From: Clostridia bacterium
Lineage (GTDB): Bacteria; Bacillota; Clostridia; UMGS1883
Reading direction: 5' to 3'
Assembly (NCBI GenBank): GCA_017466275.1
Contig: JAFTUL010000053.1
Span: forward strand, 6,163 to 70,162
Length of the DNA stretch: 64,000 nt
Shown here: in pieces, positions 21,216-64,000 of the stretch
How the letters are laid out: each line of letters opens with the position of its first letter
Position numbering within the stretch: the first letter of the stretch is position 1
Position numbers and translations under genes: made by a program
The notes under the pieces: model-generated
Database searches by the model: none
What the model saw: the letters and a program-made list of their open reading frames with translations, nothing else
What the model was told of the DNA's origin: nothing

Positions 21216-22337
21216 ATGGCGGGATTCAATTTAGGAAGAATCATAGGTGAAAAGGGTGAAAAAGGCGAAACCGGTCCCAAGGGCGATACAGGTGCAAAGG
21301 GTGACAAGGGCGACAAGGGTGATAGCGGAAAGGACGGACTTACTCCTGTTTTTTCAGTAGGAGAAGTCACTACCCTTACAAACGGAGAATCAGCACTGGT
21401 GGAAATTGACTCTTCAAATCCAGAAAATCCCGTGCTATCATTTAAAATCCCTGCAGGAAAAGATGGCAGGGATGCTATGGGTGATATGCTCAAAACTGTT
21501 TATGACACCAAGGGGATTGGTACGGACATTTTTGAATATGCTAAAAAGCTCTTTGACGGTTGTCTTAAAACGGAGGGCGGAAATCTGTCGGGCGGCCTTA
21601 CCGTGGCAGAGTCCCCTCTTTCCGAAAGGGCTGTCCGTAATATCTCAATAGCCTCATCTTTGCCAGAAGCAGGGGCAGAGGGGGATGTCTTTATCAAATT
21701 AAATGATAAAAATTCAAAAACCCTCGGTGACTGCAATGCGGGGGACACGGTTATTATAAAGGAAAACGGAAAGGGCATTGTGTATTTTGTTGCAGGAAAA
21801 AATTATCACGGAGAAAATACCGTATCACTTTTACGAAAGGATTTGTGTCCCTTTAAGTGTTCCTATGACTACGAAAGACGTGAGCAATACCCTATGAGTG
21901 ATATTGATATATTTTTGGAATCGATGTTTATTTCTATCTATTCCCCTGAAGTGAGAAATTCACTTGTTTCTGTAAACAATATTGACAATGCTTACAGACA
22001 TTGCTTCATATTGAGTAAAAACGATTACACCTATATGAATTATTTTTCGGATGTGAAAAAACGGGCGGCATGTATAGAGGGAACAGGATATTATGAATCA
22101 CACCTGACTGCAAGTACAGGTACAAAAGGAAACATTGTCGGCGTAGGTACTGCAGGTGATTTTGTTTCAATAAGTATTTCCAGTATGGCATATTTCAGAC
22201 CGACAATCGTATTGCCTTCAGATTTTCCTGTAATTAATACTCAAAAGGACTCTCTGCCTGCCGTAATGCCGGTTACACCCAATCCCGGGATATATGTTTA
22301 TGCAGGCGGTGAATGGAGGGAGTGTGCTCTGTTATGA
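21216..22337 (+). CDS. Collagen-like repeat fibre protein
   Basis: 10 G-X-Y triplets (closing Gly at aa 41), GEKGEKGETGPKGDTGAKGDKGDKGDSGKDG (nt 21246-21338), then a 330-aa globular C-terminal region. Confidence 0.75.
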   Translation: MAGFNLGRIIGEKGEKGETGPKGDTGAKGDKGDKGDSGKDGLTPVFSVGEVTTLTNGESALVEIDSSNPENPVLSFKIPAGKDGRDAMGDMLKTVYDTKGIGTDIFEYAKKLFDGCLKTEGGNLSGGLTVAESPLSERAVRNISIASSLPEAGAEGDVFIKLNDKNSKTLGDCNAGDTVIIKENGKGIVYFVAGKNYHGENTVSLLRKDLCPFKCSYDYERREQYPMSDIDIFLESMFISIYSPEVRNSLVSVNNIDNAYRHCFILSKNDYTYMNYFSDVKKRAACIEGTGYYESHLTASTGTKGNIVGVGTAGDFVSISISSMAYFRPTIVLPSDFPVINTQKDSLPAVMPVTPNPGIYVYAGGEWRECALL

Positions 22338-28062: not shown

Positions 28063-29106
28063 ATGAACGAAATAATAATTAAAGTCAGCGGACAGTTTAT
28101 TTCAAAAAACAGTAAAAATGCAGGTGCAGCAGGAGAAGCAAATTCCTGCAGTATAAAATTCTGTTTTGACGACAGTTGGGCAGGATTTTCCAAAAGGGTT
28201 CTCTGGCGTGACAGCAAGGGAGAAAATCTTACAAGCGTAATCCTTGTTCCCGACATAGAAAATCAAAGTGAGTATAACAGTATCATTCCTGCCTGCATTA
28301 CAAAGGCTTCGGGCTGGTGTACATTCACGGTAGAGGGATATTTTGAATCAAATCCTGACATTGTAAATAAGTCAGTCAGCGACAGCCTTTTTATCGGATA
28401 TTCGGATCTAAGTGATGAGATTGTTCCCATAAGTCCGAGTGAGGCTATGCAGCTTCAGAGTGAATTTGAAACTTTAATGCCACGAGTAAAAAGTCTGATG
28501 GAGGAAACGCAAAGCGGTATAGAGTCCTTTTGTGAGAATCATAACGTTTGGGAGAATTACAACATTGACGCTGTGTATAAAGCAGGAAACAAGGTCTTTT
28601 ATAAAGGTTGTTCGTATGTTTGCATCAAAGAAAATCAGGGAGCATCACCCGAAAACAGTGATTGCTGGCAGATAATTGCAGACCGCGGACAGCGTGGGCA
28701 GAAAGGTAATCAGGGACCACAGGGTATTACTGGAGAAAGAGGAGAAAAAGGGGATAAGGGTGAAAAAGGCGATAAAGGAGATAAAGGCGATAGAGGTGAC
28801 AAGGGAGATAGAGGCATAAACGGAAGTATCGTTCCGTCTAACGGCTTTTACACCTTCAGCGTGGATGAAAACGGGGATTTGTGGCTTCATTATCCCGATT
28901 CTGCAAATAAGCCGGAAGTAACGCTCGATGGAAACGGAGAACTCATTTTGACTGTTGATGGGGAAACCGCTTACTCATTTAATCTTGGCATGGTAAAGGG
29001 TGAGAAAGGTGATTTGCCCAAAAAAGGAGTAGATTACTGGACGGAAAACGATAAAGCTGAAATAAAAGCTTATGTAGAAGATGCTATTTTAGGAGGTGCG
29101 TGGTAA
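28063..29106 (+). CDS. Tail-fibre-like protein with collagen tract and CBM5/12-like carbohydrate-binding motif
   Basis: The ATG at 28063 follows AAAGGAG. G-X-Y tract GQRGQKGNQGPQGITGERGEKGDKGEKGDKGDKGDRGDKGDRGINGS (nt 28687-28824), preceded by a W...Y..G..V.Y.G..Y......G..P.....W pattern. Confidence 0.7.
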   Translation: MNEIIIKVSGQFISKNSKNAGAAGEANSCSIKFCFDDSWAGFSKRVLWRDSKGENLTSVILVPDIENQSEYNSIIPACITKASGWCTFTVEGYFESNPDIVNKSVSDSLFIGYSDLSDEIVPISPSEAMQLQSEFETLMPRVKSLMEETQSGIESFCENHNVWENYNIDAVYKAGNKVFYKGCSYVCIKENQGASPENSDCWQIIADRGQRGQKGNQGPQGITGERGEKGDKGEKGDKGDKGDRGDKGDRGINGSIVPSNGFYTFSVDENGDLWLHYPDSANKPEVTLDGNGELILTVDGETAYSFNLGMVKGEKGDLPKKGVDYWTENDKAEIKAYVEDAILGGAW

Positions 29107-31550: not shown

Positions 31551-31626
31551 TGGTGCGCCATCAGGGACTCGAACCCTGGACACCCTGATTAAGAGTCAGA
31601 TGCTCTACCAACTGAGCTAATGGCAC
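31551..31626 (-). tRNA. tRNA-Lys (anticodon CTT)
   Basis: The reverse complement folds as a cloverleaf: GTGCCATTAGCTCAGTTGGTAGAGC...CTCTTAA...GGTTCGAGTCC...CACCA. CCA is encoded. Confidence 0.9.
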
Positions 31627-31631
31627 AAATA

Positions 31632-31707
31632 TGGAGCTGCCCAGCAGATTCGAACTGCCGACCTCTTCCTTACCAAGGAAGTGCTCTGCCAACTGAGCTA
31701 GGGCAGC
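31632..31707 (-). tRNA. tRNA-Thr (anticodon GGT)
   Basis: Reverse complement GCTGCCCTAGCTCAGTTGGCAGAGC, anticodon loop TTGGTAA, T-arm GGTTCGAATC. CCA is encoded. Confidence 0.9.
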
Positions 31708-31712
31708 AAAAT

Positions 31713-31789
31713 TGGCGACCCGGAAGGGGCTCGAACCCTCGACCTCCAGCGTGACAGGCTGGCGTTCTAACCAACTGAACTACCGGGCC
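31713..31789 (-). tRNA. tRNA-Asp (anticodon GTC)
   Basis: Reverse complement GGCCCGGTAGTTCAGTTGGTTAGAAC, anticodon loop CTGTCAC, T-arm GGTTCGAGCCC. CCA is encoded. Confidence 0.9.
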
Positions 31790-52756: not shown

Positions 52757-52843
52757 ATATATGTGGTTTTGTAGGCGTAGCATACTCAATATAATGTAGT
52801 TACCCCAGAAATTACCACTTAATATATATAAGGAGGTGTTACA

Positions 52844-54403
52844 ATGGGAATGGAAATTGCCATTGCTGCTGTAGTTGCAGTAGTTCTTGCAATCATCTCC
52901 GGTGCGATTTGTTTTCGTCTTGGTATCTCTCACAGAAAGAGAGTTGCCGAAGCTCAGATAGGCAGTGCAGAAGCAGAAGCGAAAAGAATTGTTGACGAAG
53001 CTGTTAAAACAGCTGAAAACAAGAAACGTGAATCACTTCTCAGCGCAAAAGAAGAGATAAATAGAAATCGTAACGAGGCAGAAAGAGAGCTTAAAGAACG
53101 CCGCAGCGAAATATCCAGACAGGAACGCAGGCTACAGCAAAAAGAGGATGCCCTTGATAAAAAAGCGGAAAATATGGAGAAAAAAGAAGAAACACTAAGC
53201 CGCAAAATCAAGGAAGCAGACGAAGAAAAAGAAAAAATTGCAGGCATTCATAAGGCACAGATTGAACTTTTAGAGCGTCTTTCAGGACTTACCGCTGAAG
53301 AAGCTAAGGAATATTTGCTTAAGAATATTGAAGATGAAGTTCGCCACGAAGCTGCAATTATGATTAAGGAAATTGAAACACAGGCTAAAGAAGAAGCCGA
53401 CAAACGTGCAAAGAACATCATCAGTGCAGGTATTCAGCGTTGTGCTGCTGACCACGTTGCAGAAACAACAGTATCAGTTGTTTCACTTCCCAATGATGAA
53501 ATGAAGGGAAGAATTATCGGTCGTGAGGGCCGAAACATCAGAACACTTGAAACACTTACGGGTATTGACCTTATTATTGACGATACTCCCGAGGCGGTTA
53601 TCCTTTCAGGATTTGACCCCATCCGTCGTGAGGTTGCCCGTGTAGCACTTGAAAAACTCATTGTTGACGGCCGTATCCACCCCTCAAGAATTGAGGAAAC
53701 CGTGGAAAAGGCAAGAAAAGAAGTTGATGCTACAATCAAGCAGGAGGGTGAACAGGCTACATTCGACACGGGTGTACACGGACTTCATCCCGAAATTGTT
53801 AAGCTTCTTGGTAAGCTTAAATTCAGAACAAGCTACGGACAGAATGTACTTAAACATTCAATCGAGGTTTCCCATGTTGCAGGTATTATGGCAGGGGAGC
53901 TTGGTGTAGATGTTGCAACCGCAAAGCGTGCAGGGCTTCTTCATGACCTTGGTAAAGCGGTTGACCACGAAATCGAGGGAAGCCATATTTCCATCGGTGT
54001 TGACATTGCTAAAAAGTATAACGAAAACAAGGAAGTTATCCATGCGATAGAAGCACATCACGGTGATGTGGAAGCAAAGACGATTATTGCTTGTCTTGTT
54101 CAGGCGGCAGATGCAGTAAGTGCAGCCCGCCCCGGTGCAAGAAGAGAAAATATTGAAGCGTACATCAAGAGACTTCAGCAGCTTGAAGAAATTGCAACAT
54201 CCTTTGCAGGTGTTGAAAAATCCTATGCAATTCAGGCAGGCCGTGAAATCCGTATTATGGTTAAGCCCGAGGAAATCGGTGACGGTGATATGGAATTTGT
54301 GGCAAGAGAAATTGTCAAGAAAATTGAAAGCGAGCTTGAGTATCCCGGACAGATTAAAATTAATCTTATCCGTGAAACTCGCACAACAGACTACGCGAAG
54401 TAA
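52844..54403 (+). CDS. rny: Ribonuclease Y
   Basis: N-terminal TM helix, a long coiled coil, a KH domain ([12 protein letters not shown]) and an HD domain (LLHDLGK). 519 aa. Confidence 0.95.
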
Positions 54404-54411
54404 AACAAACA

Positions 54412-54445
54412 AAAAGGGCATTTGCAAAATGCCCTTTTGTTTTCC
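54412..54445 (+). terminator. Terminator/attenuator after rny
   Basis: AAAAGGGCATTT-gca-AAATGCCCTTTT followed by GTTTT. Confidence 0.75.
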
Positions 54446-54463
54446 TTTAGAAAGGTAATTTCA

Positions 54464-55255
54464 ATGAACATTTTATTTATCGGTGACATTATGGGAAGAT
54501 GCGGCAGGGATGCGGTGTTTGAGCTTCTTCCCGAGATTAAGGACGAATATAATATTGACTATACAATAGCTAACGGGGAAAATGCCTCAGGCGGACTCGG
54601 TATGAACCGCAGAGGGTATGAGGAGCTTACACGGGCAGGTATAGATTTCTTTACAATGGGAAATCACACTTTTTCCAAAAAAGAGATAATTTCTCTTTTA
54701 AATGAGGGGGAAAACATTGTCCGCCCTGCAAATCTTCCCGGTGAAAACCCCGGCGAGGGTATGGCAATAATCAATATAAACGGCACAAAGCTTGCTATAA
54801 TGAATTTAATAGGAAGAATCTACATTGACGAGAATAATCTTTCTCCGTTTTTTACCGCGGAGGAGCTTATAGAAAAAGCAAAAGAGAAAACAAACAACAT
54901 TATAATAGATTTCCACGCGGAAGCAACCAGCGAAAAGGAAGCTCTTGGCTATTATCTTGACGGTAAGGCTACTGCCGTACTGGGTACACATACCCATATT
55001 CAGACGGCGGATGAGCGTATTTTGCCACAAGGTACCGCATATATTACTGATGTGGGAAGGACAGGTGCAATCGATGCAGTTTTAGGGCTTGATAAAAATG
55101 CATCAATTGCACGTTTCACCCTGCCTGCAGATACAAAGAAGCCTCCTTTCAAGGTCGCAGAGGGGAAAGGTCAGCTTTGTGCAGTAGTGATTAAAATTGA
55201 CGAGGAAACAGGCAAGGCGGAGGAGATTATAAGAATATGCAAATCAGGAAGATAG
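54464..55255 (+). CDS. ymdB: YmdB-family (TIGR00282) metallophosphoesterase
   Basis: MNILFIGDIMGR...ANGENASGG. Conserved rny-ymdB pairing. The ORF-track start at 54422 lies inside the terminator. Confidence 0.88.
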   Translation: MNILFIGDIMGRCGRDAVFELLPEIKDEYNIDYTIANGENASGGLGMNRRGYEELTRAGIDFFTMGNHTFSKKEIISLLNEGENIVRPANLPGENPGEGMAIININGTKLAIMNLIGRIYIDENNLSPFFTAEELIEKAKEKTNNIIIDFHAEATSEKEALGYYLDGKATAVLGTHTHIQTADERILPQGTAYITDVGRTGAIDAVLGLDKNASIARFTLPADTKKPPFKVAEGKGQLCAVVIKIDEETGKAEEIIRICKSGR

Positions 55256-56022
55256 GAAAGGTTTCTCTTTACCAAAGCAGTGTTTTTGAAAAGTTTCCCA
55301 ATGTTGTACACGGCTTTACCACCCGAGAGGGAGGAGTGAGCAAGGGGCAGTACGAAAGCCTTTCGCTAAGTCCCTATCGTGGTGATGATATAGAGTGTGT
55401 TCATAAGAATGAGGAGATTCTGTGTGAAAGCCTTGGCTTTTCTTACGGCAGGCTTTCCTCCACAAAGCAGGAGCATACTGACAATATAGAAATTATAGAT
55501 AAGAGCAATATCGGTATCGGAATACATTCTCCTTGGGGAAAGGGTGTAGATGCTGTGATAACGCGGGAGAAAAATGTCCCCATTCTCTGTTACAGTGCCG
55601 ACTGTGTTCCTATTATTATGTATGCATCTGATATTGGGGCAATTGCAGCCATCCATTCGGGATGGAAAGGAACAGCAATGAAAATTGCGGAAAAAACCGT
55701 GAAAAAGCTTACAGAAATGGGTGCAACCCCCGAAAACATCTATGCAGTAATCGGGCCTTGTATAGGGAAATGCTGTTATGAGGTCAGCGAGGATGTTGCA
55801 CTTAAGTTCGACGAAAAATACTATACAGCCAAGGAAAACGGAAAATATATGCTTGACCTGGAGCAGGTCAATTTTGACCTTATAAACCGTGCAGGGGTGC
55901 TAAAAGAAAACATTTCTGCCTCGGGGATATGTACAAGATGCCACAATGACCTCTTTTTCTCCCACCGTGGGCAGGGGGGGACAAGCGGTACTCTCGGGGG
56001 AATAATTTGTATAAAGGAATAA
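55237..56022 (+). CDS. pgeF: Peptidoglycan editing factor PgeF (YfiH / laccase-domain protein)
   Basis: 261 aa. Motifs HGFTTREGGVS, DCVPI and HSGWKGT. Confidence 0.85.
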   Translation: MQIRKIGKVSLYQSSVFEKFPNVVHGFTTREGGVSKGQYESLSLSPYRGDDIECVHKNEEILCESLGFSYGRLSSTKQEHTDNIEIIDKSNIGIGIHSPWGKGVDAVITREKNVPILCYSADCVPIIMYASDIGAIAAIHSGWKGTAMKIAEKTVKKLTEMGATPENIYAVIGPCIGKCCYEVSEDVALKFDEKYYTAKENGKYMLDLEQVNFDLINRAGVLKENISASGICTRCHNDLFFSHRGQGGTSGTLGGIICIKE

Positions 56023-56027
56023 ATCGT

Positions 56028-57563
56028 ATGAGAAAACCAAAATTAATTTTAATACTATTGGCAGTTGTATTGATATTTACCTCCTGCAGAGGAAATGGCG
56101 GAACGGCCTCAACTGATAATGATAAAGGCGGGGTTATAACCTTGCAGATGAGAGAGTGCGACTCTTTTAATCCGCTTGCCGTAACGCACCATAGCACCCG
56201 TGATGTTCTTTCACTTTGCTATGAGCCTCTTTTCAGCGTAAATGACACAATAGAGACGGAGGGAGTCCTCGCTCAGAGCATTGACATTTCAGATGACTGT
56301 ATGACGGCAATCATAAACCTTAAGGATTCTGTGCTTTGGCACGATGGAATAAAGTTTACCAGCAATGACGTTATCCATACAATGAGTCTGTTAAAGGACA
56401 ACCCCAACTGGGAGTACAGCGATTGTGTGAAATATATTGATTCGGCCGTTGCAATCGATGCTCTTTCTCTGAAAATTAATTTGACAAGACCTTACGGACA
56501 GATAGCACATTCTCTCACATTTCCCATAGTGCCGTACACAAACGGGGAGCTTGATTCAAAAATTGTTGGAACAGGCCCGTATATGTTTTCAGCATATACT
56601 CCGTCAACTGTATTGGAGCTTGTTAAAAATACAAGCTGGCACGGAGGAGAGGCAATCTGTAAAAAAATCAATATTAGCATAATTCGTGACAATAATGCGG
56701 CAACAACTGCTTTCAATACGGGCTTGCTCAGTGCAGTTACAGACAATTCCTTTGACCTTGAAAATAATACCCCGCGAATAAATACCAAAACCCATTCGTA
56801 CCCCACGTCGGAATTTGAGTATATGGCACTCAACCACAACCGCGGAGTTTTTGTGTCGCAGGCTGTCCGCTCTGCAGTATCCTATGCGATAGACCGCAGC
56901 GACATCGTGAAAAACTGCTATCAGAATGAAGCCGTGGCGGTAAATGCCCCGATTCATCCCTCGGCACAGAATGTAACGGAATCTTCAATTTTGTCCCAAT
57001 ACAGCCTCGCAAATGCAAGTGAAATGCTGTTTCTTGAGGGATATACCCTTGATGAAAACACACGCCTTTTAAAAGACGGAAACGGAAATGTCCTGTCGTT
57101 TTCTATTCTTGTAAACGAAGACAATCTGCCGAGAACTAAAACGGCAGAGGTGCTTGCAAAACATCTTTTTGCCGCAGGTATTGATGTAAGGGTAGTATCT
57201 CTTCCGTTTGACGAGTATCTTGAAAGAATCAAAAGCGGTGAGTTTGACGCATATCTGGGCGGAGCAAGACTTCGTAATTTCTACGACTTTGAAGCCTTGC
57301 TCAGAGAGGGCGGAAGCCTCAATAATTACGGATATAAGAGCGAATTTATGGACCTTGCTTTAAATGCCATAAATTCATCACGCGGTAACGACAGCCTGAG
57401 CGATGCACTGTTCAATTTTGAAGAGGTATTTCTGCGTGAACAGCCCGTACTGGGACTGGTTTTCAGAAACAGAGTTCTCCTGACCTCGGAAAACATAAAA
57501 GGCGAAATAACAACCGGTGTAAACACGCCTTATAAAAACATTCATAGCTGGTCTGTGAATTAA
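56028..57563 (+). CDS. ABC transporter substrate-binding lipoprotein (family 5, peptide/nickel type)
   Basis: Signal peptide with lipobox IFTSC. About 510 aa with overall SBP_bac_5-like features. Confidence 0.65.
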   Translation: MRKPKLILILLAVVLIFTSCRGNGGTASTDNDKGGVITLQMRECDSFNPLAVTHHSTRDVLSLCYEPLFSVNDTIETEGVLAQSIDISDDCMTAIINLKDSVLWHDGIKFTSNDVIHTMSLLKDNPNWEYSDCVKYIDSAVAIDALSLKINLTRPYGQIAHSLTFPIVPYTNGELDSKIVGTGPYMFSAYTPSTVLELVKNTSWHGGEAICKKINISIIRDNNAATTAFNTGLLSAVTDNSFDLENNTPRINTKTHSYPTSEFEYMALNHNRGVFVSQAVRSAVSYAIDRSDIVKNCYQNEAVAVNAPIHPSAQNVTESSILSQYSLANASEMLFLEGYTLDENTRLLKDGNGNVLSFSILVNEDNLPRTKTAEVLAKHLFAAGIDVRVVSLPFDEYLERIKSGEFDAYLGGARLRNFYDFEALLREGGSLNNYGYKSEFMDLALNAINSSRGNDSLSDALFNFEEVFLREQPVLGLVFRNRVLLTSENIKGEITTGVNTPYKNIHSWSVN

Positions 57564-57565
57564 CA

Positions 57566-57605
57566 AAAAACACCTCTCTGTAATAATATATAGAGAGGTG
57601 TTTTC
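57566..57605 (+). terminator. Terminator hairpin whose 3' arm contains the dpaA Shine-Dalgarno
   Basis: CACCTCTCT-(12 nt)-AGAGAGGTG followed by TTTT. The dpaA ATG is at 57609. Confidence 0.65.
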
Positions 57606-57608
57606 ATT

Positions 57609-58445
57609 ATGAATATAGAAAGAATACTGATTATCGGCGGAGATTCCCGTATAAATTATTTGTCACAGGGACTTATGGAGGATGGCTTCAAGGTAAAAAC
57701 ATTTGACGGCAGTGAACCGCTTAAAACGGCGGTGGAGGAGTGCGATGCAGTAGTGCTGGGACTTCCCTGCAGCCGTGACGACAAGACTGTCGATGCACCG
57801 GACCTTTCAGAAAGCATTCTTCTTAAGGATTTGTTTCATATAATGGGGAAAAACAAGCTTCTTCTTGCAGGAAAAATGTCACAGGGAACAAAAGCTGTTG
57901 CAGATGTGTTCGGCGTAAAATGGGTGGACTATTTTATGCGTGAGGAACTGGAAATTTTAAATGCCGTTCCCACCTGCGAGGGTGCATTGCAAATAGCTAT
58001 GGAGGAGCTTCCGATAACATTATTCGGCTGTGATGTAGTGGTAACGGGCTTTGGTAAGGTGGCACAGCCCATCGTCTGTGCACTTCGTGCTTTGGGAGCG
58101 AATGTAACAGTATGTGCACGAAAACCCTCCGCCCGTGCAAAGGCAAGGAGTTCCGGTGCAGATGCGGTGGATTTTTCGTCTCTCAAGGACAGTATGAGTA
58201 AGGCTCACCTTGTTATAAACACCGTTCCGCAATTAGTGATTGGAAGACGTGAGCTTATTGCGGCAAAAAATGCTCTTATTATAGACCTTGCATCAAAACC
58301 CGGCGGGGTGGATATGGAAGCGGCAAAGGACCTTGGCGTAAAAGTCATTTGGGCATTGGGACTTCCAGGGAAGGTAGCGCCTGTCACAGCAGGAAATATC
58401 ATAAAAGAAACCATCTGCAACATCTTAGGTGAGTTAGGTGAATAA
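57609..58445 (+). CDS. dpaA: Dipicolinate synthase subunit A
   Basis: 278 aa. ILIIGGDSR and Rossmann motif VVVTGFGKV. Paired with dpaB. Confidence 0.85.
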   Translation: MNIERILIIGGDSRINYLSQGLMEDGFKVKTFDGSEPLKTAVEECDAVVLGLPCSRDDKTVDAPDLSESILLKDLFHIMGKNKLLLAGKMSQGTKAVADVFGVKWVDYFMREELEILNAVPTCEGALQIAMEELPITLFGCDVVVTGFGKVAQPIVCALRALGANVTVCARKPSARAKARSSGADAVDFSSLKDSMSKAHLVINTVPQLVIGRRELIAAKNALIIDLASKPGGVDMEAAKDLGVKVIWALGLPGKVAPVTAGNIIKETICNILGELGE

Positions 58446-58448
58446 TAT

Positions 58449-59027
58449 ATGGATGCATCAAAAATTCGGTTAGGATTTGCATTTACCGGCTCGTTTTGCA
58501 CAATGAGAAAAGTCACCGATATTATGAAAACTGTGAAAGAGGCGGGCTACGATATTTTTCCCATAATGAGTGAAACAGTTTACTCTACCGACACACGCTT
58601 CGGTAAATGTAATGACTATATAACTGAAATTGAAGGTATATGCGGCAGAAAAATCATTGCAAGTGTAACGGCGGCAGAGCCTATCGGTCCCAAAAAGCTG
58701 ATAGACGCTCTTGTAATAGCCCCCTGCACGGGGAATACTCTGGGGAAGCTTGCAAACGGAATCTATGACGGGTGTGTTCCTCTCGCGGCAAAGGCAAACC
58801 TCAGAAATAACCGCCCCGTCATAATCGCACCGTCTACCAATGACGGACTCAGTGCTTCTGCAAAAAACATAGGAACACTTTTAAACACAAAGAATATTTT
58901 CTTCGTACCTTTCGGGCAGGATGACCCCTTTGACAAGAATAATTCCCTTGTAGCAAAGTGGGAATATCTTCTCCCTGCCGTGGAAAGTGCATTGTCAGGA
59001 AAACAGCTTCAACCGATTATTATGTGA
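58449..59027 (+). CDS. dpaB: Dipicolinate synthase subunit B (flavoprotein)
   Basis: 192 aa. Flavoprotein motifs GFAFTGSFCT and APCTGNTLGKLANG. Confidence 0.88.
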   Translation: MDASKIRLGFAFTGSFCTMRKVTDIMKTVKEAGYDIFPIMSETVYSTDTRFGKCNDYITEIEGICGRKIIASVTAAEPIGPKKLIDALVIAPCTGNTLGKLANGIYDGCVPLAAKANLRNNRPVIIAPSTNDGLSASAKNIGTLLNTKNIFFVPFGQDDPFDKNNSLVAKWEYLLPAVESALSGKQLQPIIM

Positions 59028-59035
59028 AATGCAGA

Positions 59036-59072
59036 ATGACACACTTTGGGGACTATACCCAAAGTGTGTCAT
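59036..59072. terminator. 15-bp perfect stem-loop between dpaB and the XRE gene
   Basis: ATGACACACTTTGGG-gactata-CCCAAAGTGTGTCAT. Weak T-tract. Confidence 0.5.
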
Positions 59073-59087
59073 TTGTTGTATATAATA

Positions 59088-59330
59088 CTATTTAATTTCC
59101 TGCTCCAGTTTTCTGAATTCTGCAGTATCAAAAAATTCTGTTATCGAAATGCCTAACCCGTCACAAAGCATTTTTATTGTTACAACACCGGGATTCTGGC
59201 TTTTTCCGTAAAGTATATTTTTTAAGGTAGAGGCAGGAATCCCCGATTTTGTAGCCAACTTATTGATTGTAATATTATACTCTTTACATAAAGATAATAT
59301 TCGATTTTTCACAACTGCATAAGTGTCCAT
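59088..59330 (-). CDS. XRE-family helix-turn-helix regulator
   Basis: 80 aa. HTH motif ITINKLATKSGIPASTLKNILYGKSQNP. Confidence 0.8.
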   Translation of the reverse strand: MDTYAVVKNRILSLCKEYNITINKLATKSGIPASTLKNILYGKSQNPGVVTIKMLCDGLGISITEFFDTAEFRKLEQEIK

Positions 59331-59376
59331 AAAGTCACCTCAAAAATAATTATAGGCTAATTATAGCTTATTTTTC

Positions 59377-59405
59377 TTGACAAAGTAGGCTATATATGAT
59401 ACTAT
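59377..59405 (+). promoter_or_regulatory. Predicted promoter P1, divergent from the XRE gene
   Basis: TTGACA, 17 nt, TACTAT. Confidence 0.5.
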
Positions 59406-59411
59406 ATTTGT

Positions 59412-59478
59412 GAGGATGTTGCCACACAAACTTATAAAAAAGGATGAGGAATCAATTTGAGATTTCGCATCCTTTTTT
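59412..59478 (+). ncRNA. Candidate short transcript (about 65 nt) from P1 to a terminator
   Basis: Starts near the 18-nt motif TGTTGCCACACAAACTTA (59417-59434). Ends at the hairpin AAAAAGGATG...CATCCTTTTTT (59436-59478). Confidence 0.3.
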
Positions 59479-59550
59479 ACTTTTGACATAAAAACCTTGA
59501 TTATATATACCTTTTATGCTAAAATTATACGGTATTTTTAAAATAAAAGC

Positions 59551-59579
59551 TTGACTTTATCGCTTTACCGTGGTAAAAT
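59551..59579 (+). promoter_or_regulatory. Predicted his-operon promoter P2
   Basis: TTGACT, 17 nt, TAAAAT. Confidence 0.55.
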
Positions 59580-59586
59580 GCTAAAG

Positions 59587-59887
59587 TAAAAATAAAAGCA
59601 CACGGAAGTCTAACCCCATATGGTTTTAAGATGCCAATTTGGGTTAATACGGCAGAAAATCCCTTGAAAATACCATCGTATTTCCTGCGAGATTTTACTT
59701 GTCTTAACCCAAAATTGTCTGTCTTAAAACTCTTCGACCTTAAATGTATAAAATTTAGTGCAATTTTTATGCGGAGGACGAAGATAGGCGGTTGCCTTTC
59801 AAGGACGACAAATGAAAAGTGTGCAAATTTTAAAATTTAAGGCATATGGGGATAGGCTTCCGTGTGCTTGATAAGGAATGAACCGAA
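59587..59887 (+). promoter_or_regulatory. Approx. 300-nt highly structured 5' leader of hisZGDC (unclassified RNA element)
   Basis: A 27-nt long-range helix, 59596-59622 with 59843-59869 (25 Watson-Crick pairs, 1 G-U, 1 mismatch), encloses nested helices at 59623-59631/59722-59730, 59634-59647/59704-59717, 59738-59745/59835-59842 and 59749-59756/59825-59832. Confidence 0.55.
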
Positions 59888-61006
59888 ATGACACTGAATG
59901 ACAACATATTAAAAACCGAAGAAAGGATTACCTTTGCTCTTCGTAGCCTTTATCACGAAAGCGGATACACCCCCTTTAAAATGAGCAGATTCGAGGAGTA
60001 CGATATGTATGTCCGCAACAAGAATTTTGTAGGCAGCGGAAATATCGTTACATTTACAGACCTTGGCGGCAGGCTTCTTGCCCTAAAGCCTGACGTAACC
60101 CTTTCCATTATAAAAAATTACAAGCCAGCACAGGGTAGTGTCAGCAAGGTTTACTATAACGAGAATGTCTACCGTCCCGACAAGGCAACCCACGAAATCA
60201 AGGAAATTATGCAGTCAGGTATCGAGTGTATGGGTGATATTACCGAGCTTGACCAGTGCGAGGTTATTGCACTCGCTATAAAGAGTCTTGAAACGGTAAG
60301 CCCCAACTATATTCTGGATATTTCTTCCGTAGGTATTGTCAAGGGGCTTCTCAGTGCCGCAGGAGTAGAGGGTAGCGTGGAAAAAAGCATAATATCTCTC
60401 CTTTGCGACAAAAACAGCTTTGCCCTCCGTACTCTTTGCGAGGAAAACGGAATAGGAAGTGCCATAACAGATATTGCTGTAAGCCTTTGTGAAATTTCGG
60501 GCAAGGCAACCGAGGTCATTGATTCCATTGAAAAGCTTTGCATAAACCGTGAAATGATGGATTCCGCCGCAGAGCTTAAGTCAATTGTAAAAGCTCTTGC
60601 AGATTGCAACTTGGCGGACAATCTCTATATAGATTTTTCAATTATTGGTGATACAAAATACTACAATGGTGTTGTTTTCCGCGGTTATGTGGATAAGCTT
60701 CCCAAGAGTATTCTTGCAGGTGGCAGATACGACAATCTTCTCCGCGGAATGGGAAAGACGGGCGGTGCAATCGGCTTTGCAGTATATTCGGATATGCTTG
60801 AAAGAATTGACAGCACGAATAAAGAGTACGATTGCGATGTACTTCTTGTATATGAAGAAACTACTGATTTTTCAGATGTAAAAAAAGTAGCAGACGAGCT
60901 TAAGAAAAGCGGAAAAACAGTAAATGTACAGAAAAAGGATGCAGGAGTTATCCGTTACAAGGAGCTTCTCAAGGTTATGAAAGGTGGCGAAACCGTAAAT
61001 GGATAA
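59888..61006 (+). CDS. hisZ: ATP phosphoribosyltransferase regulatory subunit HisZ
   Basis: 372-aa HisRS paralogue (class II core motifs, no anticodon-binding function expected). Immediately precedes a short-form hisG. Confidence 0.85.
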   Translation: MTLNDNILKTEERITFALRSLYHESGYTPFKMSRFEEYDMYVRNKNFVGSGNIVTFTDLGGRLLALKPDVTLSIIKNYKPAQGSVSKVYYNENVYRPDKATHEIKEIMQSGIECMGDITELDQCEVIALAIKSLETVSPNYILDISSVGIVKGLLSAAGVEGSVEKSIISLLCDKNSFALRTLCEENGIGSAITDIAVSLCEISGKATEVIDSIEKLCINREMMDSAAELKSIVKALADCNLADNLYIDFSIIGDTKYYNGVVFRGYVDKLPKSILAGGRYDNLLRGMGKTGGAIGFAVYSDMLERIDSTNKEYDCDVLLVYEETTDFSDVKKVADELKKSGKTVNVQKKDAGVIRYKELLKVMKGGETVNG

Positions 61007-61646
61007 GCTTTTGAATATTGCACTTCCCAAGGGAAGACTCGGCGAAAAGGTTTATGACATATTTGAAAAGGCAGGCTACGGTTGTCCCTCCATTCACGAA
61101 AATAACCGCAAGCTCATTTTTGAAAATGAAGAAACAGGCATAAGATATTTCTGGGTAAAGCCCTCTGATGTTGCCATCTATGTAGAGCGTGGTGCGGCGG
61201 ATATTGGCGTTGCAGGAAAGGATATTCTTCTAGAGTACAGCCCCGATGTGTACGAGCTTTGCGATTTGCAGATGGGTAAATGCCGTATGGCAGTTGCCGC
61301 AAAGGATGACTTTTTCGACAATCCCGAGAGAACACTTCGTGTTGCAACAAAATTCCCTAATATAACCAAGAAATATTACAGTACATTAAGCCGTGAAATT
61401 GACATCATCAAGCTTAACGGCTCAATCGAGATTGCCCCTATCCTTGGGCTTTCCGATGTTATTGTGGATATTGTGGAAACGGGAACAACCTTAAAGGAGA
61501 ACAACCTCCGCCCATATGAAACAATTGTTCCCATCAGTGCGCGACTTATTTCCAACAAGGTCAGCTATAAGTTTAAAAACGATGTAATAGGCAAAATTGC
61601 AAATGCCATTGAGGGATACGTTTCCGAAAAGGAGAACAACAAATGA
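60999..61646 (+). CDS. hisG: ATP phosphoribosyltransferase, short form
   Basis: 215 aa. LNIALPKGRL and DIVETGTTLKEN motifs. Lacks the C-terminal regulatory domain, consistent with HisZ dependence. Confidence 0.92.
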   Translation: MDKLLNIALPKGRLGEKVYDIFEKAGYGCPSIHENNRKLIFENEETGIRYFWVKPSDVAIYVERGAADIGVAGKDILLEYSPDVYELCDLQMGKCRMAVAAKDDFFDNPERTLRVATKFPNITKKYYSTLSREIDIIKLNGSIEIAPILGLSDVIVDIVETGTTLKENNLRPYETIVPISARLISNKVSYKFKNDVIGKIANAIEGYVSEKENNK

Positions 61647-62935
61647 TTAAAATATATAATTATGAAGAAATCAGCATAGATGAAATATTTGCCCGTGATA
61701 TTGAAGATACCTCTTCAATCGAGAAAACCGTTTCGGAAATTATTGATAATGTAAAGAAAAACGGCGACAAAGCCCTTTTTGAATATGCCGACAAGTTTGA
61801 TGGCGGTGCTCCCGACAGCCTTCTTGTATCCGAGGAAGAATATGAAGAGGCTATGAAAGAGGTTTCTCCTGAACTTATAGAAATCCTCAAAAAAGCGGCA
61901 GTAAATATTGAGAATTATCACAAGCGTCAGGTACGACAGAGCTTTATCATAAGCGAAAACGAGGGCGTAGTGGTGGGTCAGAAGATTATCCCTATTGAAA
62001 AGGCAGGTCTTTATGTTCCCGGAGGCACTGCGGCATATCCGTCAAGCGTACTTATGAACTGTATCCCTGCAAAAATAGCAGGCTGCAGCGAAATCGTAAT
62101 TACAACACCTGCCAAGGGCGGTAAGGTTAACCCAGTAATTCTTGTAGCGGCAAAAATCGGTGGGGTAAGTAAAGTCTTTAAAACAGGCGGTGCACAGGCT
62201 ATTGCGGCACTTGCCTATGGAACGGAAACAATACCCAAGGTTGACAAAATTGTAGGACCAGGCAACGCCTTTGTTGCCGAGGCGAAGAAGCAGGTTTTCG
62301 GCAAGGTTTCAATAGATATGATAGCAGGTCCCAGCGAAATTTTAGTTATCGCTGACGGAAAGAGCAACCCCGTATTTGTTGCGGCAGACCTGCTTTCTCA
62401 GGCGGAACACGACAAGATGGCAAGTGCAGTTTTAGTTACTGAAAGCCGCGAGCTTGCAGAAAAAGTTTCGGCAGAGCTTGAAAGACAGATTCCTCTTTTA
62501 AGCCGTGCGGAAATTGCCCGCGCATCAATAGACGACAACGGAAAAATCATTATAGTTAAGGATATTGAAACAGCGGTAAATGCGTCCAACGAGATTGCCC
62601 CCGAGCATCTTGAACTTTGTATGGATAATCCCTTTGACTACCTTGACCGCGTAAAGCACGCAGGAAGCATCTTTATGGGAAGATACTGTCCCGAGGCTCT
62701 CGGTGACTATTTTGCAGGTCCTAACCACACCCTTCCCACAAGCGGTACGGCAAGATTTTCAAGTCCCCTTTCCGTAGACGATTTCATCAAGAAAACACAG
62801 TATACATACTATACGGAAAACGCACTTAAAAAGGTAAGTGACGATATTTATAAATTTGCAATGGCAGAGGGTTTGGAAGCCCACGCAAAAAGTGCTGTAA
62901 GCAGATTTAAAGAAAAGGAAAATACCAATGAGTAA
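61643..62935 (+). CDS. hisD: Histidinol dehydrogenase
   Basis: 430 aa. Motifs GGAQAIAALAYGT, AGPSE and QAEHD. Confidence 0.95.
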   Translation: MIKIYNYEEISIDEIFARDIEDTSSIEKTVSEIIDNVKKNGDKALFEYADKFDGGAPDSLLVSEEEYEEAMKEVSPELIEILKKAAVNIENYHKRQVRQSFIISENEGVVVGQKIIPIEKAGLYVPGGTAAYPSSVLMNCIPAKIAGCSEIVITTPAKGGKVNPVILVAAKIGGVSKVFKTGGAQAIAALAYGTETIPKVDKIVGPGNAFVAEAKKQVFGKVSIDMIAGPSEILVIADGKSNPVFVAADLLSQAEHDKMASAVLVTESRELAEKVSAELERQIPLLSRAEIARASIDDNGKIIIVKDIETAVNASNEIAPEHLELCMDNPFDYLDRVKHAGSIFMGRYCPEALGDYFAGPNHTLPTSGTARFSSPLSVDDFIKKTQYTYYTENALKKVSDDIYKFAMAEGLEAHAKSAVSRFKEKENTNE

Positions 62936-63983
62936 ATTTTTCAGTCCAAAACACAGTAAACTTATTCCATATACCCCCGGCGAACAACCAAGGGATATGA
63001 AATACATAAAACTTAATACTAATGAATCACCCTATCCGCCCTCACAAAAGGCGATAGAGGATGCATCAAGGGAGGCGGAGCTTTTAAGGCTCTACCCCGA
63101 CCCAGAATGTACATCTCTCAGGGAAGATATTGCTTCATTCTACGGAGTTAAAAAGGAGAATGTAATTCCCTCCAACGGCTCTGACGAAATACTGAACTTT
63201 GCCTTTATGGCATACGGTGATGACTCTCATCCCTTTGTATTTCCCGACATAACCTACGGCTTTTACAATGTCTTTGCAGAGGTTAATAACATCCCCTACG
63301 AGGAAATTCCTCTTGAAGAGGATTTCACCATTGATTTTGACAAATACTGCGGTATCAATAAAAATATTGTAATCGCAAACCCCAATGCCCCCACGGGTAT
63401 TTTTGCCCCCCTTTCGGAGATTGAAAGGGTAGTTAAATCTAACCCTGACAACATTGTGATAGTTGACGAGGCGTATGTGGATTTCGGTGGAGAAACGGCA
63501 ATTCCCCTTACCAAAAAGTATTCTAACCTTATCGTTGTGCAGACCTTTTCCAAGTCCCGCAGTATGGCAGGGGCAAGGCTTGGCTTCTGCGTTGCGTGTG
63601 AGGAGCTTTGTCAGGACCTTAACACAATCCGTTACAGCGTAAACCCCTACAATATTAACCGTATGACAATGGCGGCAGGAAGTGCGGCGATAAACGACAA
63701 AGAATATTTTGATAAAAATAGATTTGAGATAATAGAAACCCGTGAAAAGGTGGAAAAAGAGCTTACAGCTCTCGGCTTTACGGTGCTTCCGTCAAAGGCG
63801 AACTTCCTCTTTGCAAAAAGTGATAAAATAGGGGGAGAAGAGCTTTATAAAAAGCTCCGTGAAAACGGAATTTTAGTACGCCATTTCACCGCAAAAAGAA
63901 TCTCGGACTTTAACCGAATCACAATCGGCACTCCCGAGGATATGGAAACATTCATAAACACAGTAAAAGGATTGATATTATGA
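62928..63983 (+). CDS. hisC: Histidinol-phosphate aminotransferase
   Basis: 351 aa. KLNTNESPYPPS, DEAYVDF and the PLP-lysine context TFSKSRSMAGARLG. Confidence 0.92.
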   Translation: MSKFFSPKHSKLIPYTPGEQPRDMKYIKLNTNESPYPPSQKAIEDASREAELLRLYPDPECTSLREDIASFYGVKKENVIPSNGSDEILNFAFMAYGDDSHPFVFPDITYGFYNVFAEVNNIPYEEIPLEEDFTIDFDKYCGINKNIVIANPNAPTGIFAPLSEIERVVKSNPDNIVIVDEAYVDFGGETAIPLTKKYSNLIVVQTFSKSRSMAGARLGFCVACEELCQDLNTIRYSVNPYNINRMTMAAGSAAINDKEYFDKNRFEIIETREKVEKELTALGFTVLPSKANFLFAKSDKIGGEELYKKLRENGILVRHFTAKRISDFNRITIGTPEDMETFINTVKGLIL

Positions 63984-64000
63984 GAAATTCTACAATTAAC
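63980..64000 (+). CDS. hisB: Start of the next his gene, probably imidazoleglycerol-phosphate dehydratase (partial)
   Basis: ATGA overlap with hisC. Only MRNSTIN is visible. The call rests on operon context. Confidence 0.35.

Follow-up and report, generated by a model that had tools for sequence, protein, structure and literature searches.

A lineage-restricted palindromic element between the promoter and hisZ of a clostridial histidine operon

Bacterial MITEs and small palindromic repeats include the Correia elements of Neisseria, RUP and BOX of Streptococcus pneumoniae, and ERIC. Stem-loops of another kind stand at the 5′ terminus of Firmicutes mRNAs and stabilise them, as in the ermC and aprE leaders; and the known RNA controls of his genes are T-box leaders and His leader-peptide attenuators. 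In Eubacteriales, the usual his regulator is HisR, a histidine repressor of the TrpR family, and T-boxes upstream of his genes are rare there because HisR dominates (PMC9413887). A 20-bp palindromic operator consensus for HisR, cacTTTAnnnnnnTAAAgtg, has been defined for Firmicutes, and it was validated in vitro for Ruminococcus gnavus HisR, with histidine as the co-repressor (PMC9413887).

Here we describe the long leader of a his operon in a 64-kb window (the whole stretch of DNA that was analysed, 64,000 nt). The reading that we favour, at a probability of roughly 0.6, is that the leader owes its length to a passenger, a MITE-like palindromic insertion in the 5′UTR of a HisR-controlled operon.

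The his promoter and its putative operator

The genes hisZ, hisG, hisD, and hisC are the first of a 10-gene his operon that runs past the end of the window. These genes, and the sequences that precede them, are located as follows:

59551-59579, plus strand: his operon promoter TTGACT-17-TAAAAT, TG-extended (promoter scan, 10/12 match)
59554-59588, no strand assigned: probable HisR operator, with the core 20-bp palindrome cgcTTTAccgtggTAAAatg at 59561-59580
59596-59869, plus strand: whole inserted element, about 267-275 bp (leader alignments and spacing tables against relatives)
59873-59890, plus strand: hisZ Shine-Dalgarno sequence (SD) AAGGAAT and start codon (59888), predicted to be single-stranded in the folded leader
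59888-63983, plus strand: hisZ, hisG, hisD, and hisC (ORFs; Pfam families of the called genes in contig L047)

The promoter had already been picked out in an earlier, sequence-only reading of this DNA; our promoter scan found it again, with a predicted transcription start at about 59586-59588, and it is conserved in relatives, being nearly invariant in all 28 close loci and in the additional contigs. The core palindrome cgcTTTAccgtggTAAAatg overlaps the −10 region of this promoter and agrees with the Firmicutes HisR consensus cacTTTAnnnnnnTAAAgtg, and it is flanked by outer inverted half-sites (ACTTTA at 59554-59559 and TAAAGT at 59583-59588). The pattern TTTA-N6-TAAA occurs at a single site in 59300-59900 of the window; upstream of hisZ (or of hisR-hisZ) it was found in 33 out of 33 loci, and it is near-identical in the 28 close ones. 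The distance from the operator to the ATG is 56-61 nt in 20 of the 28 close loci, versus 327 nt in the window.

No hisR gene was found in the 64-kb window; in the distant relatives L030-L032, L034, and L035, a TrpR-family gene is located immediately upstream of hisZ (Pfam Trp_repressor, E = 3.5e-23). We infer that HisR binds at the operator in the window and that hisR lies elsewhere in the genome; and, since the operator matches the HisR consensus, the his operon is probably controlled at transcription initiation. The sequence-only reading named T-boxes as what Firmicutes his genes use where they are regulated in cis, which is incomplete: HisR is the usual regulator in Eubacteriales (PMC9413887), and its operator consensus is present in this very promoter. 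With this predicted site, a textbook HisR operator in an uncultured Oscillospiraceae clade, the published HisR regulon would be extended.

Several other features of the window were recorded in passing. The dipicolinate synthase genes dpaA and dpaB (57609-59027) directly precede the his locus and mark the organism as a probable spore former. A strong promoter (TTGACA-17-TGaTACTAT) in 59377-59483 heads a unit of about 70 nt, which ends in an intrinsic terminator (59435-59479), contains a possible 14-codon micro-ORF (MLPHKLIKKDEESI), and is divergent from an 80-aa XRE-type HTH gene (59088-59330, minus strand); this unit may specify a small RNA or a peptide, or form a toxin-antitoxin-like cassette. 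Positions 59395-59487 are an indel among the related loci described below, missing in L049, L003, and L004, and present in L005. Elsewhere in the window there are two genes with collagen-like GXY triplet repeats (9-nt periodic GGNGANAAN arrays at 21245-21338 and 28722-28833) and a cluster of three tRNA genes (31554-31789, minus strand).

Fold of the element and access to the ribosome-binding site

The element consists of two terminal arms, which pair with each other, and two long hairpins between them:

59596-59622, plus strand: 5′ arm of the closing helix (left terminal inverted repeat), AAGCACACGGAAGTCTAACCCCATATG (fold and complementarity)
59623-59730, plus strand: domain 1, an imperfect long hairpin of 108 nt (MFE and centroid structures)
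59738-59842, plus strand: domain 2, an imperfect long hairpin of 105 nt with an AGGC-GGUU-GCCU apex (MFE and centroid structures)
59843-59869, plus strand: 3′ arm of the closing helix (right terminal inverted repeat), without a U-tract after it on the plus strand

Complementarity and folding both confirm the 27-bp closing helix of the sequence-only reading: across its 27 positions the arms form 25 Watson-Crick pairs, with one U-G pair (59609/59856) and one A-A mismatch (59613/59852), and the pair probability of the helix is about 0.95 in the context of the whole 5′UTR. The two arms are the sole matches to the arm 27-mer in the 64-kb window when up to three mismatches are allowed (0 expected, from 100 shuffles). 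The MFE of the 301-nt stretch is −109.4 kcal/mol, as compared with −62.4 ± 4.3 kcal/mol in dinucleotide shuffles (z = −10.9). The inner helices proposed earlier were largely reproduced, as the MFE structure contains GUUUUAAGA/UCUUAAAAC, CCAAUUUGGGUUAA/UUAACCCAAAAUUG, CCUUAAAU/AUUUAAGG, UAAAAUUU/AAAUUUUA, and the AGGC-GGUU-GCCU hairpin; the exception is GCAGAAAAU/AUUUCCUGC at the apex of domain 1, which has alternative pairings and where this helix is not used by the MFE.

The plus (transcribed) strand folds better than the other strand (−107.9 versus −97.7 kcal/mol), and its MFE structure has six G-U pairs and no A-C mismatch among its four 1x1 internal loops. This bias hints at selection at the RNA level or the single-strand level at some time. 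Coding capacity is small: the longest ORF within the element, and the sole one above 31 aa, has 69 aa with no His among them, and no homologue of it was found among 5.8 billion protein clusters searched.

The sequence CATATG stands on either side of the 220-nt interior (59617-59622 and 59843-59848), and with the interior (59623-59842) removed in silico the arms make a 48-nt near-perfect palindrome; on this ground the element may be a nested structure, two hairpins inside a 48-nt palindrome, perhaps the result of an insertion into an older hairpin. The 5′ arm also includes an SD-like GGAAG with an ATG 11 nt downstream and a 15-codon ORF. Read on the minus strand, CTTTTATTTTT comes after the closing helix (59599-59622), so the element would terminate antisense transcription only.

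The AAGGAA of the hisZ SD (59873-59878) begins just after the 3′ arm, as noted earlier, with a gap of 3 nt (rather than 4). In the presence of the element, the mean unpaired probability is 0.59 for the SD and 0.79 for the AUG, and that of the SD is 0.55-0.70 in element-free relatives. An alternate state of the leader, with the ribosome-binding site (RBS) sequestered by the 3′ arm as in a switch, was considered and rejected, as this arm would pair with the RBS at −7.6 kcal/mol, versus −45.3 kcal/mol with the 5′ arm.

We also checked the region for known kinds of leader. A terminator scan of the region found no terminator or U-tract after the closing helix on the plus strand, and among the ORFs of the element that reach 20 aa none has a His-codon run; a His leader-peptide attenuator was rejected on these two grounds. 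Rfam searches of the region, at the gathering score and at E ≤ 10, returned chance-level matches only; the sole match on the element was MIR444 (18.9 bits, versus a gathering score of 110), and nine related loci gave no match. A T-box leader was rejected because its covariance model (RF00230) was not matched at either threshold. The absences listed in the sequence-only reading (T-box sequence, specifier-loop architecture, His-codon run, and terminator with a U-tract) were all upheld.

A large, very stable multi-helix fold between promoter and hisZ that is not explained by any known Rfam family is what one would expect of a novel ligand-, tRNA-, or protein-sensing cis-regulatory RNA for histidine biosynthesis, i.e., a riboswitch or an analogue of the T-box. 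We regard such a sensor as highly improbable, given that the leader offers no terminator, no sequestration of the SD, and no plausible alternative pairing; that ligand pockets typically have conserved internal loops and junction nucleotides, of which its near-perfect helices show none; that the operon already has a conserved HisR operator; and that the element is unconserved even within the species or in the leaders of relatives, as described next.

Distribution of the element, its insertion site, and its possible origins

We compared 35 loci from species-representative genomes and 33 further places that were obtained by exact-protein look-up; their HisZ proteins form a graded series of relatives, from 98% to below 50% identity. 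The element is present only in contigs with identical HisZ (L036-L039, L047, L048, and L050), where it is base-for-base identical; beyond the window, these contigs represent five other samples. It is not present in contig L049, although the latter has an identical HisC and shares 96-99.7% nucleotide identity with the window over 11 kb; nor in L001-L005 and L043 (97-99% HisZ identity, with flanks of about 90-93% nucleotide identity); nor in the group with 80-88% HisZ identity or any more distant relative examined. Taken together, the leaders of about 44 other relatives (65-99% HisZ identity), and every other locus searched, lack it. We conclude from this comparison that the element is an accessory, recently gained feature of one lineage, and not a conserved component of his regulation, because it accompanies only identical HisZ and is absent from L049 and the other relatives. 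Loss in the relatives, instead of gain in the lineage of the window, was rejected by parsimony (the other lineages are element-free and share a 16-17-nt spacer), and an assembly artefact was rejected on finding the identical sequence in five independent assemblies.

Since all copies of the element are identical, there is no covariation to read. The main inference of the sequence-only reading, a novel cis-regulatory RNA for histidine biosynthesis, finds no support in these comparisons: the element is missing from every relative examined and has no expression platform, and that inference fails in the terms set by the reading itself, because there is no conservation upstream of the relatives' his operons. 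The case carries a caution, as a fold of several helices that is highly stable (z about −11) and stands between promoter and biosynthetic genes can mimic a new riboswitch, and it was the close relatives that revealed an accessory insertion.

The leader of the element-free contig L049 is the allele found in L003, not the exact empty-site allele of the window lineage. Compared with 52818-64000 of the window, L049 is a mosaic, in which some 100-nt bins are 100% identical and others 86-94%. This mosaic identity and the L003-type leader, as seen in the alignments, indicate that these species often recombine homologously over the his promoter region.

Alignment with relatives places the exact ends of the element within 59596-59600 and 59866-59870. 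The spacing from GCTAAAGT to the SD (AAGGAATGA or GAGGAATGA) is 16-17 nt in the relatives; in the window, the same interval consists of AAAAATAAAAG, then the element, then CTTGAT. If the ends are taken as 59600 and 59866, the flanks sum to exactly the ancestral 17 nt and there is no duplication; if they are taken as 59596 and 59870, the flanks form a direct repeat of 4 bp (ATAA), but the ancestral spacer would then have been shorter by 11 nt than that of any relative.

The element has several traits of a MITE. It is small and non-coding (about 270 bp, its 69-aa ORF being without a homologue among the called proteins), it has terminal inverted repeats (the 27-bp arms, unique in the window), and its insertion is polymorphic (found in five other samples; absent from L049 and every sister species). 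A second copy was looked for without success in the window, in about 350 kb of related loci, and in a further 10 kb that adjoins the window. JGI metagenomes, IMG/VR, PLSDB plasmids, and GenBank phages gave no second copy either, which is a weak test, since none of these collections demonstrably includes the remainder of this genome; blastn of the region against plasmids and phages had no match. An exact 20-mer of the arm, GCACACGGAAGNCTANCCCC, had three single-arm chance matches with no wider similarity in the JGI metagenomes, a collection without the window's own locus, and in IMG/VR there were 0 matches for the arm 20-mer, for an interior 20-mer, and for the arm of the GGGGAC-type hairpins described below. 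A degenerate arm search (≤8/27 mismatches) and nhmmer with the element returned only the known locus from the window and the related loci; in this same DNA we found no source for the 220-nt interior, and no partner IS or arm-like sequence elsewhere. A literature search with the arm sequence yielded nothing that bears on this element. Membership of the element in the MITEs is thus unproven, because neither a second copy nor a clear target-site duplication was found. The sequence-only reading had offered a mobile element between the promoter and hisZ as its alternative; the insertion itself is supported by the pattern of presence and absence, whereas multiple copies and clear target-site duplications were not found in the DNA searched.

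On the passenger reading that we favour, about 270 bp of recent, lineage-restricted, non-coding palindromic DNA, most likely non-autonomous and of the MITE or mobile-hairpin kind, would have inserted into the gap of about 17 nt between the transcription start and the hisZ SD. Control of the his genes would remain upstream of the element, at the promoter with its HisR-type (TrpR-family, histidine-dependent) operator, and the element would merely be co-transcribed as a part of the 5′UTR. The 27-bp closing helix would join the two ends of the element and put the 5′ tail and the RBS back near their original arrangement; because it brings the ends together, the inserted RNA would form a self-contained three-way junction. 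With no terminator and with the RBS unmasked, the element would be tolerated, and the closing helix, which insulates the insertion and reunites the native 5′ tail and RBS, would explain the tolerance of such an insertion ahead of ten biosynthetic genes. At most, the element would modulate mRNA stability; it would not sense histidine. We infer both the mobility and the neutrality of the element.

Some observations do not sit easily with a passenger. A foreign transposon end need not resemble the native leader and RBS; yet the 5′ arm (59599-59622), placed in its natural register after AAAAG, is identical at 14 of 24 positions to the native leader/RBS of L005 (L005:2975-3003), with an empirical P of about 9e-4 for the L005 allele and 0.01-0.03 for other alleles. 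The transcribed strand folds better than the other, no second copy or partner IS was found in the DNA searched, and the ends showed no clear target-site duplication. The strand-biased fold and the likeness of arm and leader fall outside a simple transposon account, and would leave room for a local inverted duplication or an imported leader variant.

In sister species, the same gap between operator and SD contains hairpin cassettes of the form GGGGAC...GTCCCC, which are unrelated to the window element. For example, the same 54-nt hairpin is found in L012 (2928-2981) and in L017 (2930-2982), in opposite orientations; in L008 (2816-2892), a GGGGAC-type copy is nested in the loop of another copy; L013 (2919-2980) and L066-L068 (in L066, about 60 nt upstream of hisZ) have a common variant with a different interior; and L009 (2868-2985) and L014 (2870-2985) have 115-nt multi-hairpin versions. 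The L013-type cassette is found in both the 79% and the 86% HisZ lineages, a patchy distribution with respect to the HisZ tree. No further copy of the GGGGAC-type cassettes was found in their own 7-kb loci or in the window, and they had no Rfam match. Miniature GC hairpins, such as CGGGAACTGTCCCG and GGGGGGTGCCCC, lie between GCTAAAG and the SD in L006, L057-L058, L059-L061, and L062-L063, and look like GGGGAC-family ends that have lost their interior, or like footprints. The inverted and nested copies are signs that small hairpins move into this gap, and they count in favour of a mobile origin of the window element. Judging from these loci, hairpin cassettes have an apparent hot spot in the gap that separates the HisR operator from the hisZ RBS; should a genome-wide survey confirm it, it could provide a small natural system for studying how 5′UTRs tolerate or exploit palindromic insertions.

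These cassettes bear on the local origin raised above, in which a template switch would have made an inverted duplication of the native leader/RBS that was later elaborated, or a long-evolved leader variant would have come as a cassette by homologous recombination from an unsampled relative, with the ultra-conserved promoter and the 5′ end of hisZ as anchors. The 14/24 likeness of the 5′ arm in its natural register would follow from such an origin, which needs no target-site duplication and suits flanks that sum to the ancestral 17 nt; L049 shows that the same interval is exchanged between species (an L003 leader in a background 96-99.7% identical to the window), and the hairpin cassettes are similarly patchy on the HisZ tree (the L013 type in the 79% and 86% lineages). 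But no source of the 220-nt interior could be detected in the window or among the loci, the similarity of arm and RBS is modest and depends on the allele (P 0.001-0.03), and no donor lineage was found among the loci compared, and we consider this origin quite unlikely.

A different possibility is that the element, whatever brought it in, has been exapted as a lineage-specific 5′UTR domain that tunes the mRNA level without sensing histidine, either as an RNase III site or as 5′ protection from decay by RNase J/RNase Y. Its helix is of sufficient length for RNase III, with just 8-10 nt between it and the predicted 5′ terminus; the plus strand is the one that folds better, with six G-U pairs and with 1x1 internal loops free of A-C mismatches; the element is fixed in the lineage, with the same sequence in five further samples; and unrelated hairpins recur at exactly the same position in sister species, always with the SD free. 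The decay machinery is of the Firmicutes type, to judge from an RNase Y gene 7 kb upstream. Any inserted palindrome would, however, display such features by default; most relatives, and L049, which is about the same species, manage without any hairpin; and the copies are all identical, so selection leaves no variation in which to show itself. Exaptation seems to us unlikely on balance, if worth keeping in mind.

Bolder still would be to take the 17-nt gap as a dedicated landing or exchange site for cassettes of about 20-274 nt, which enter in both orientations and can be nested. The window element would then be the largest of an undescribed group of hairpin-seeking mobile palindromes, or such cassettes would be closed multi-helix leaders selected for the stability of the his mRNA through RNase III processing or protection of the 5′ end. 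This we put forward as a speculation with rather long odds.

Comparison with known systems

The passenger insertion that we favour resembles T-box leaders and His attenuators in position, since it follows the promoter and precedes the first his gene, and in its length of 200-300 nt. Unlike them, it contains no T-box sequence, specifier loop, terminator/antiterminator, or run of His codons, it has no Rfam match at E ≤ 10, and it is unconserved. The ermC and aprE leaders are likewise stable helices near the 5′ end of a transcript and upstream of an accessible RBS, but the hairpins of those leaders are short and stand only a few nt from the 5′ end, whereas the element, compared at the level of sequence, measures 274 nt and follows a single-stranded tail of 8-10 nt.

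The HisR-regulated his operons of Eubacteriales (PMC9413887) agree with this locus in the 20-bp palindrome cgcTTTAccgtggTAAAatg over the −10 region, which fits cacTTTAnnnnnnTAAAgtg, and in the TrpR-family gene that the distant relatives carry directly upstream of hisZ; the locus differs from them in that the 64-kb window has no hisR and in that the inserted leader falls outside the published architecture.

Compared with bacterial MITEs, the element is unusual in that its interior forms two separate long hairpins rather than one and in that one strand folds better than the other (6 G-U pairs), and a second copy, a clear target-site duplication, and a partner IS were not found for it in the searched DNA. 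In its other properties it resembles them: it is AT-rich non-coding DNA of small size (about 270 bp) that ends in long inverted repeats; and it folds into stable stem-loops, lies in a 5′UTR where it is co-transcribed with the operon, and varies in presence between close strains.
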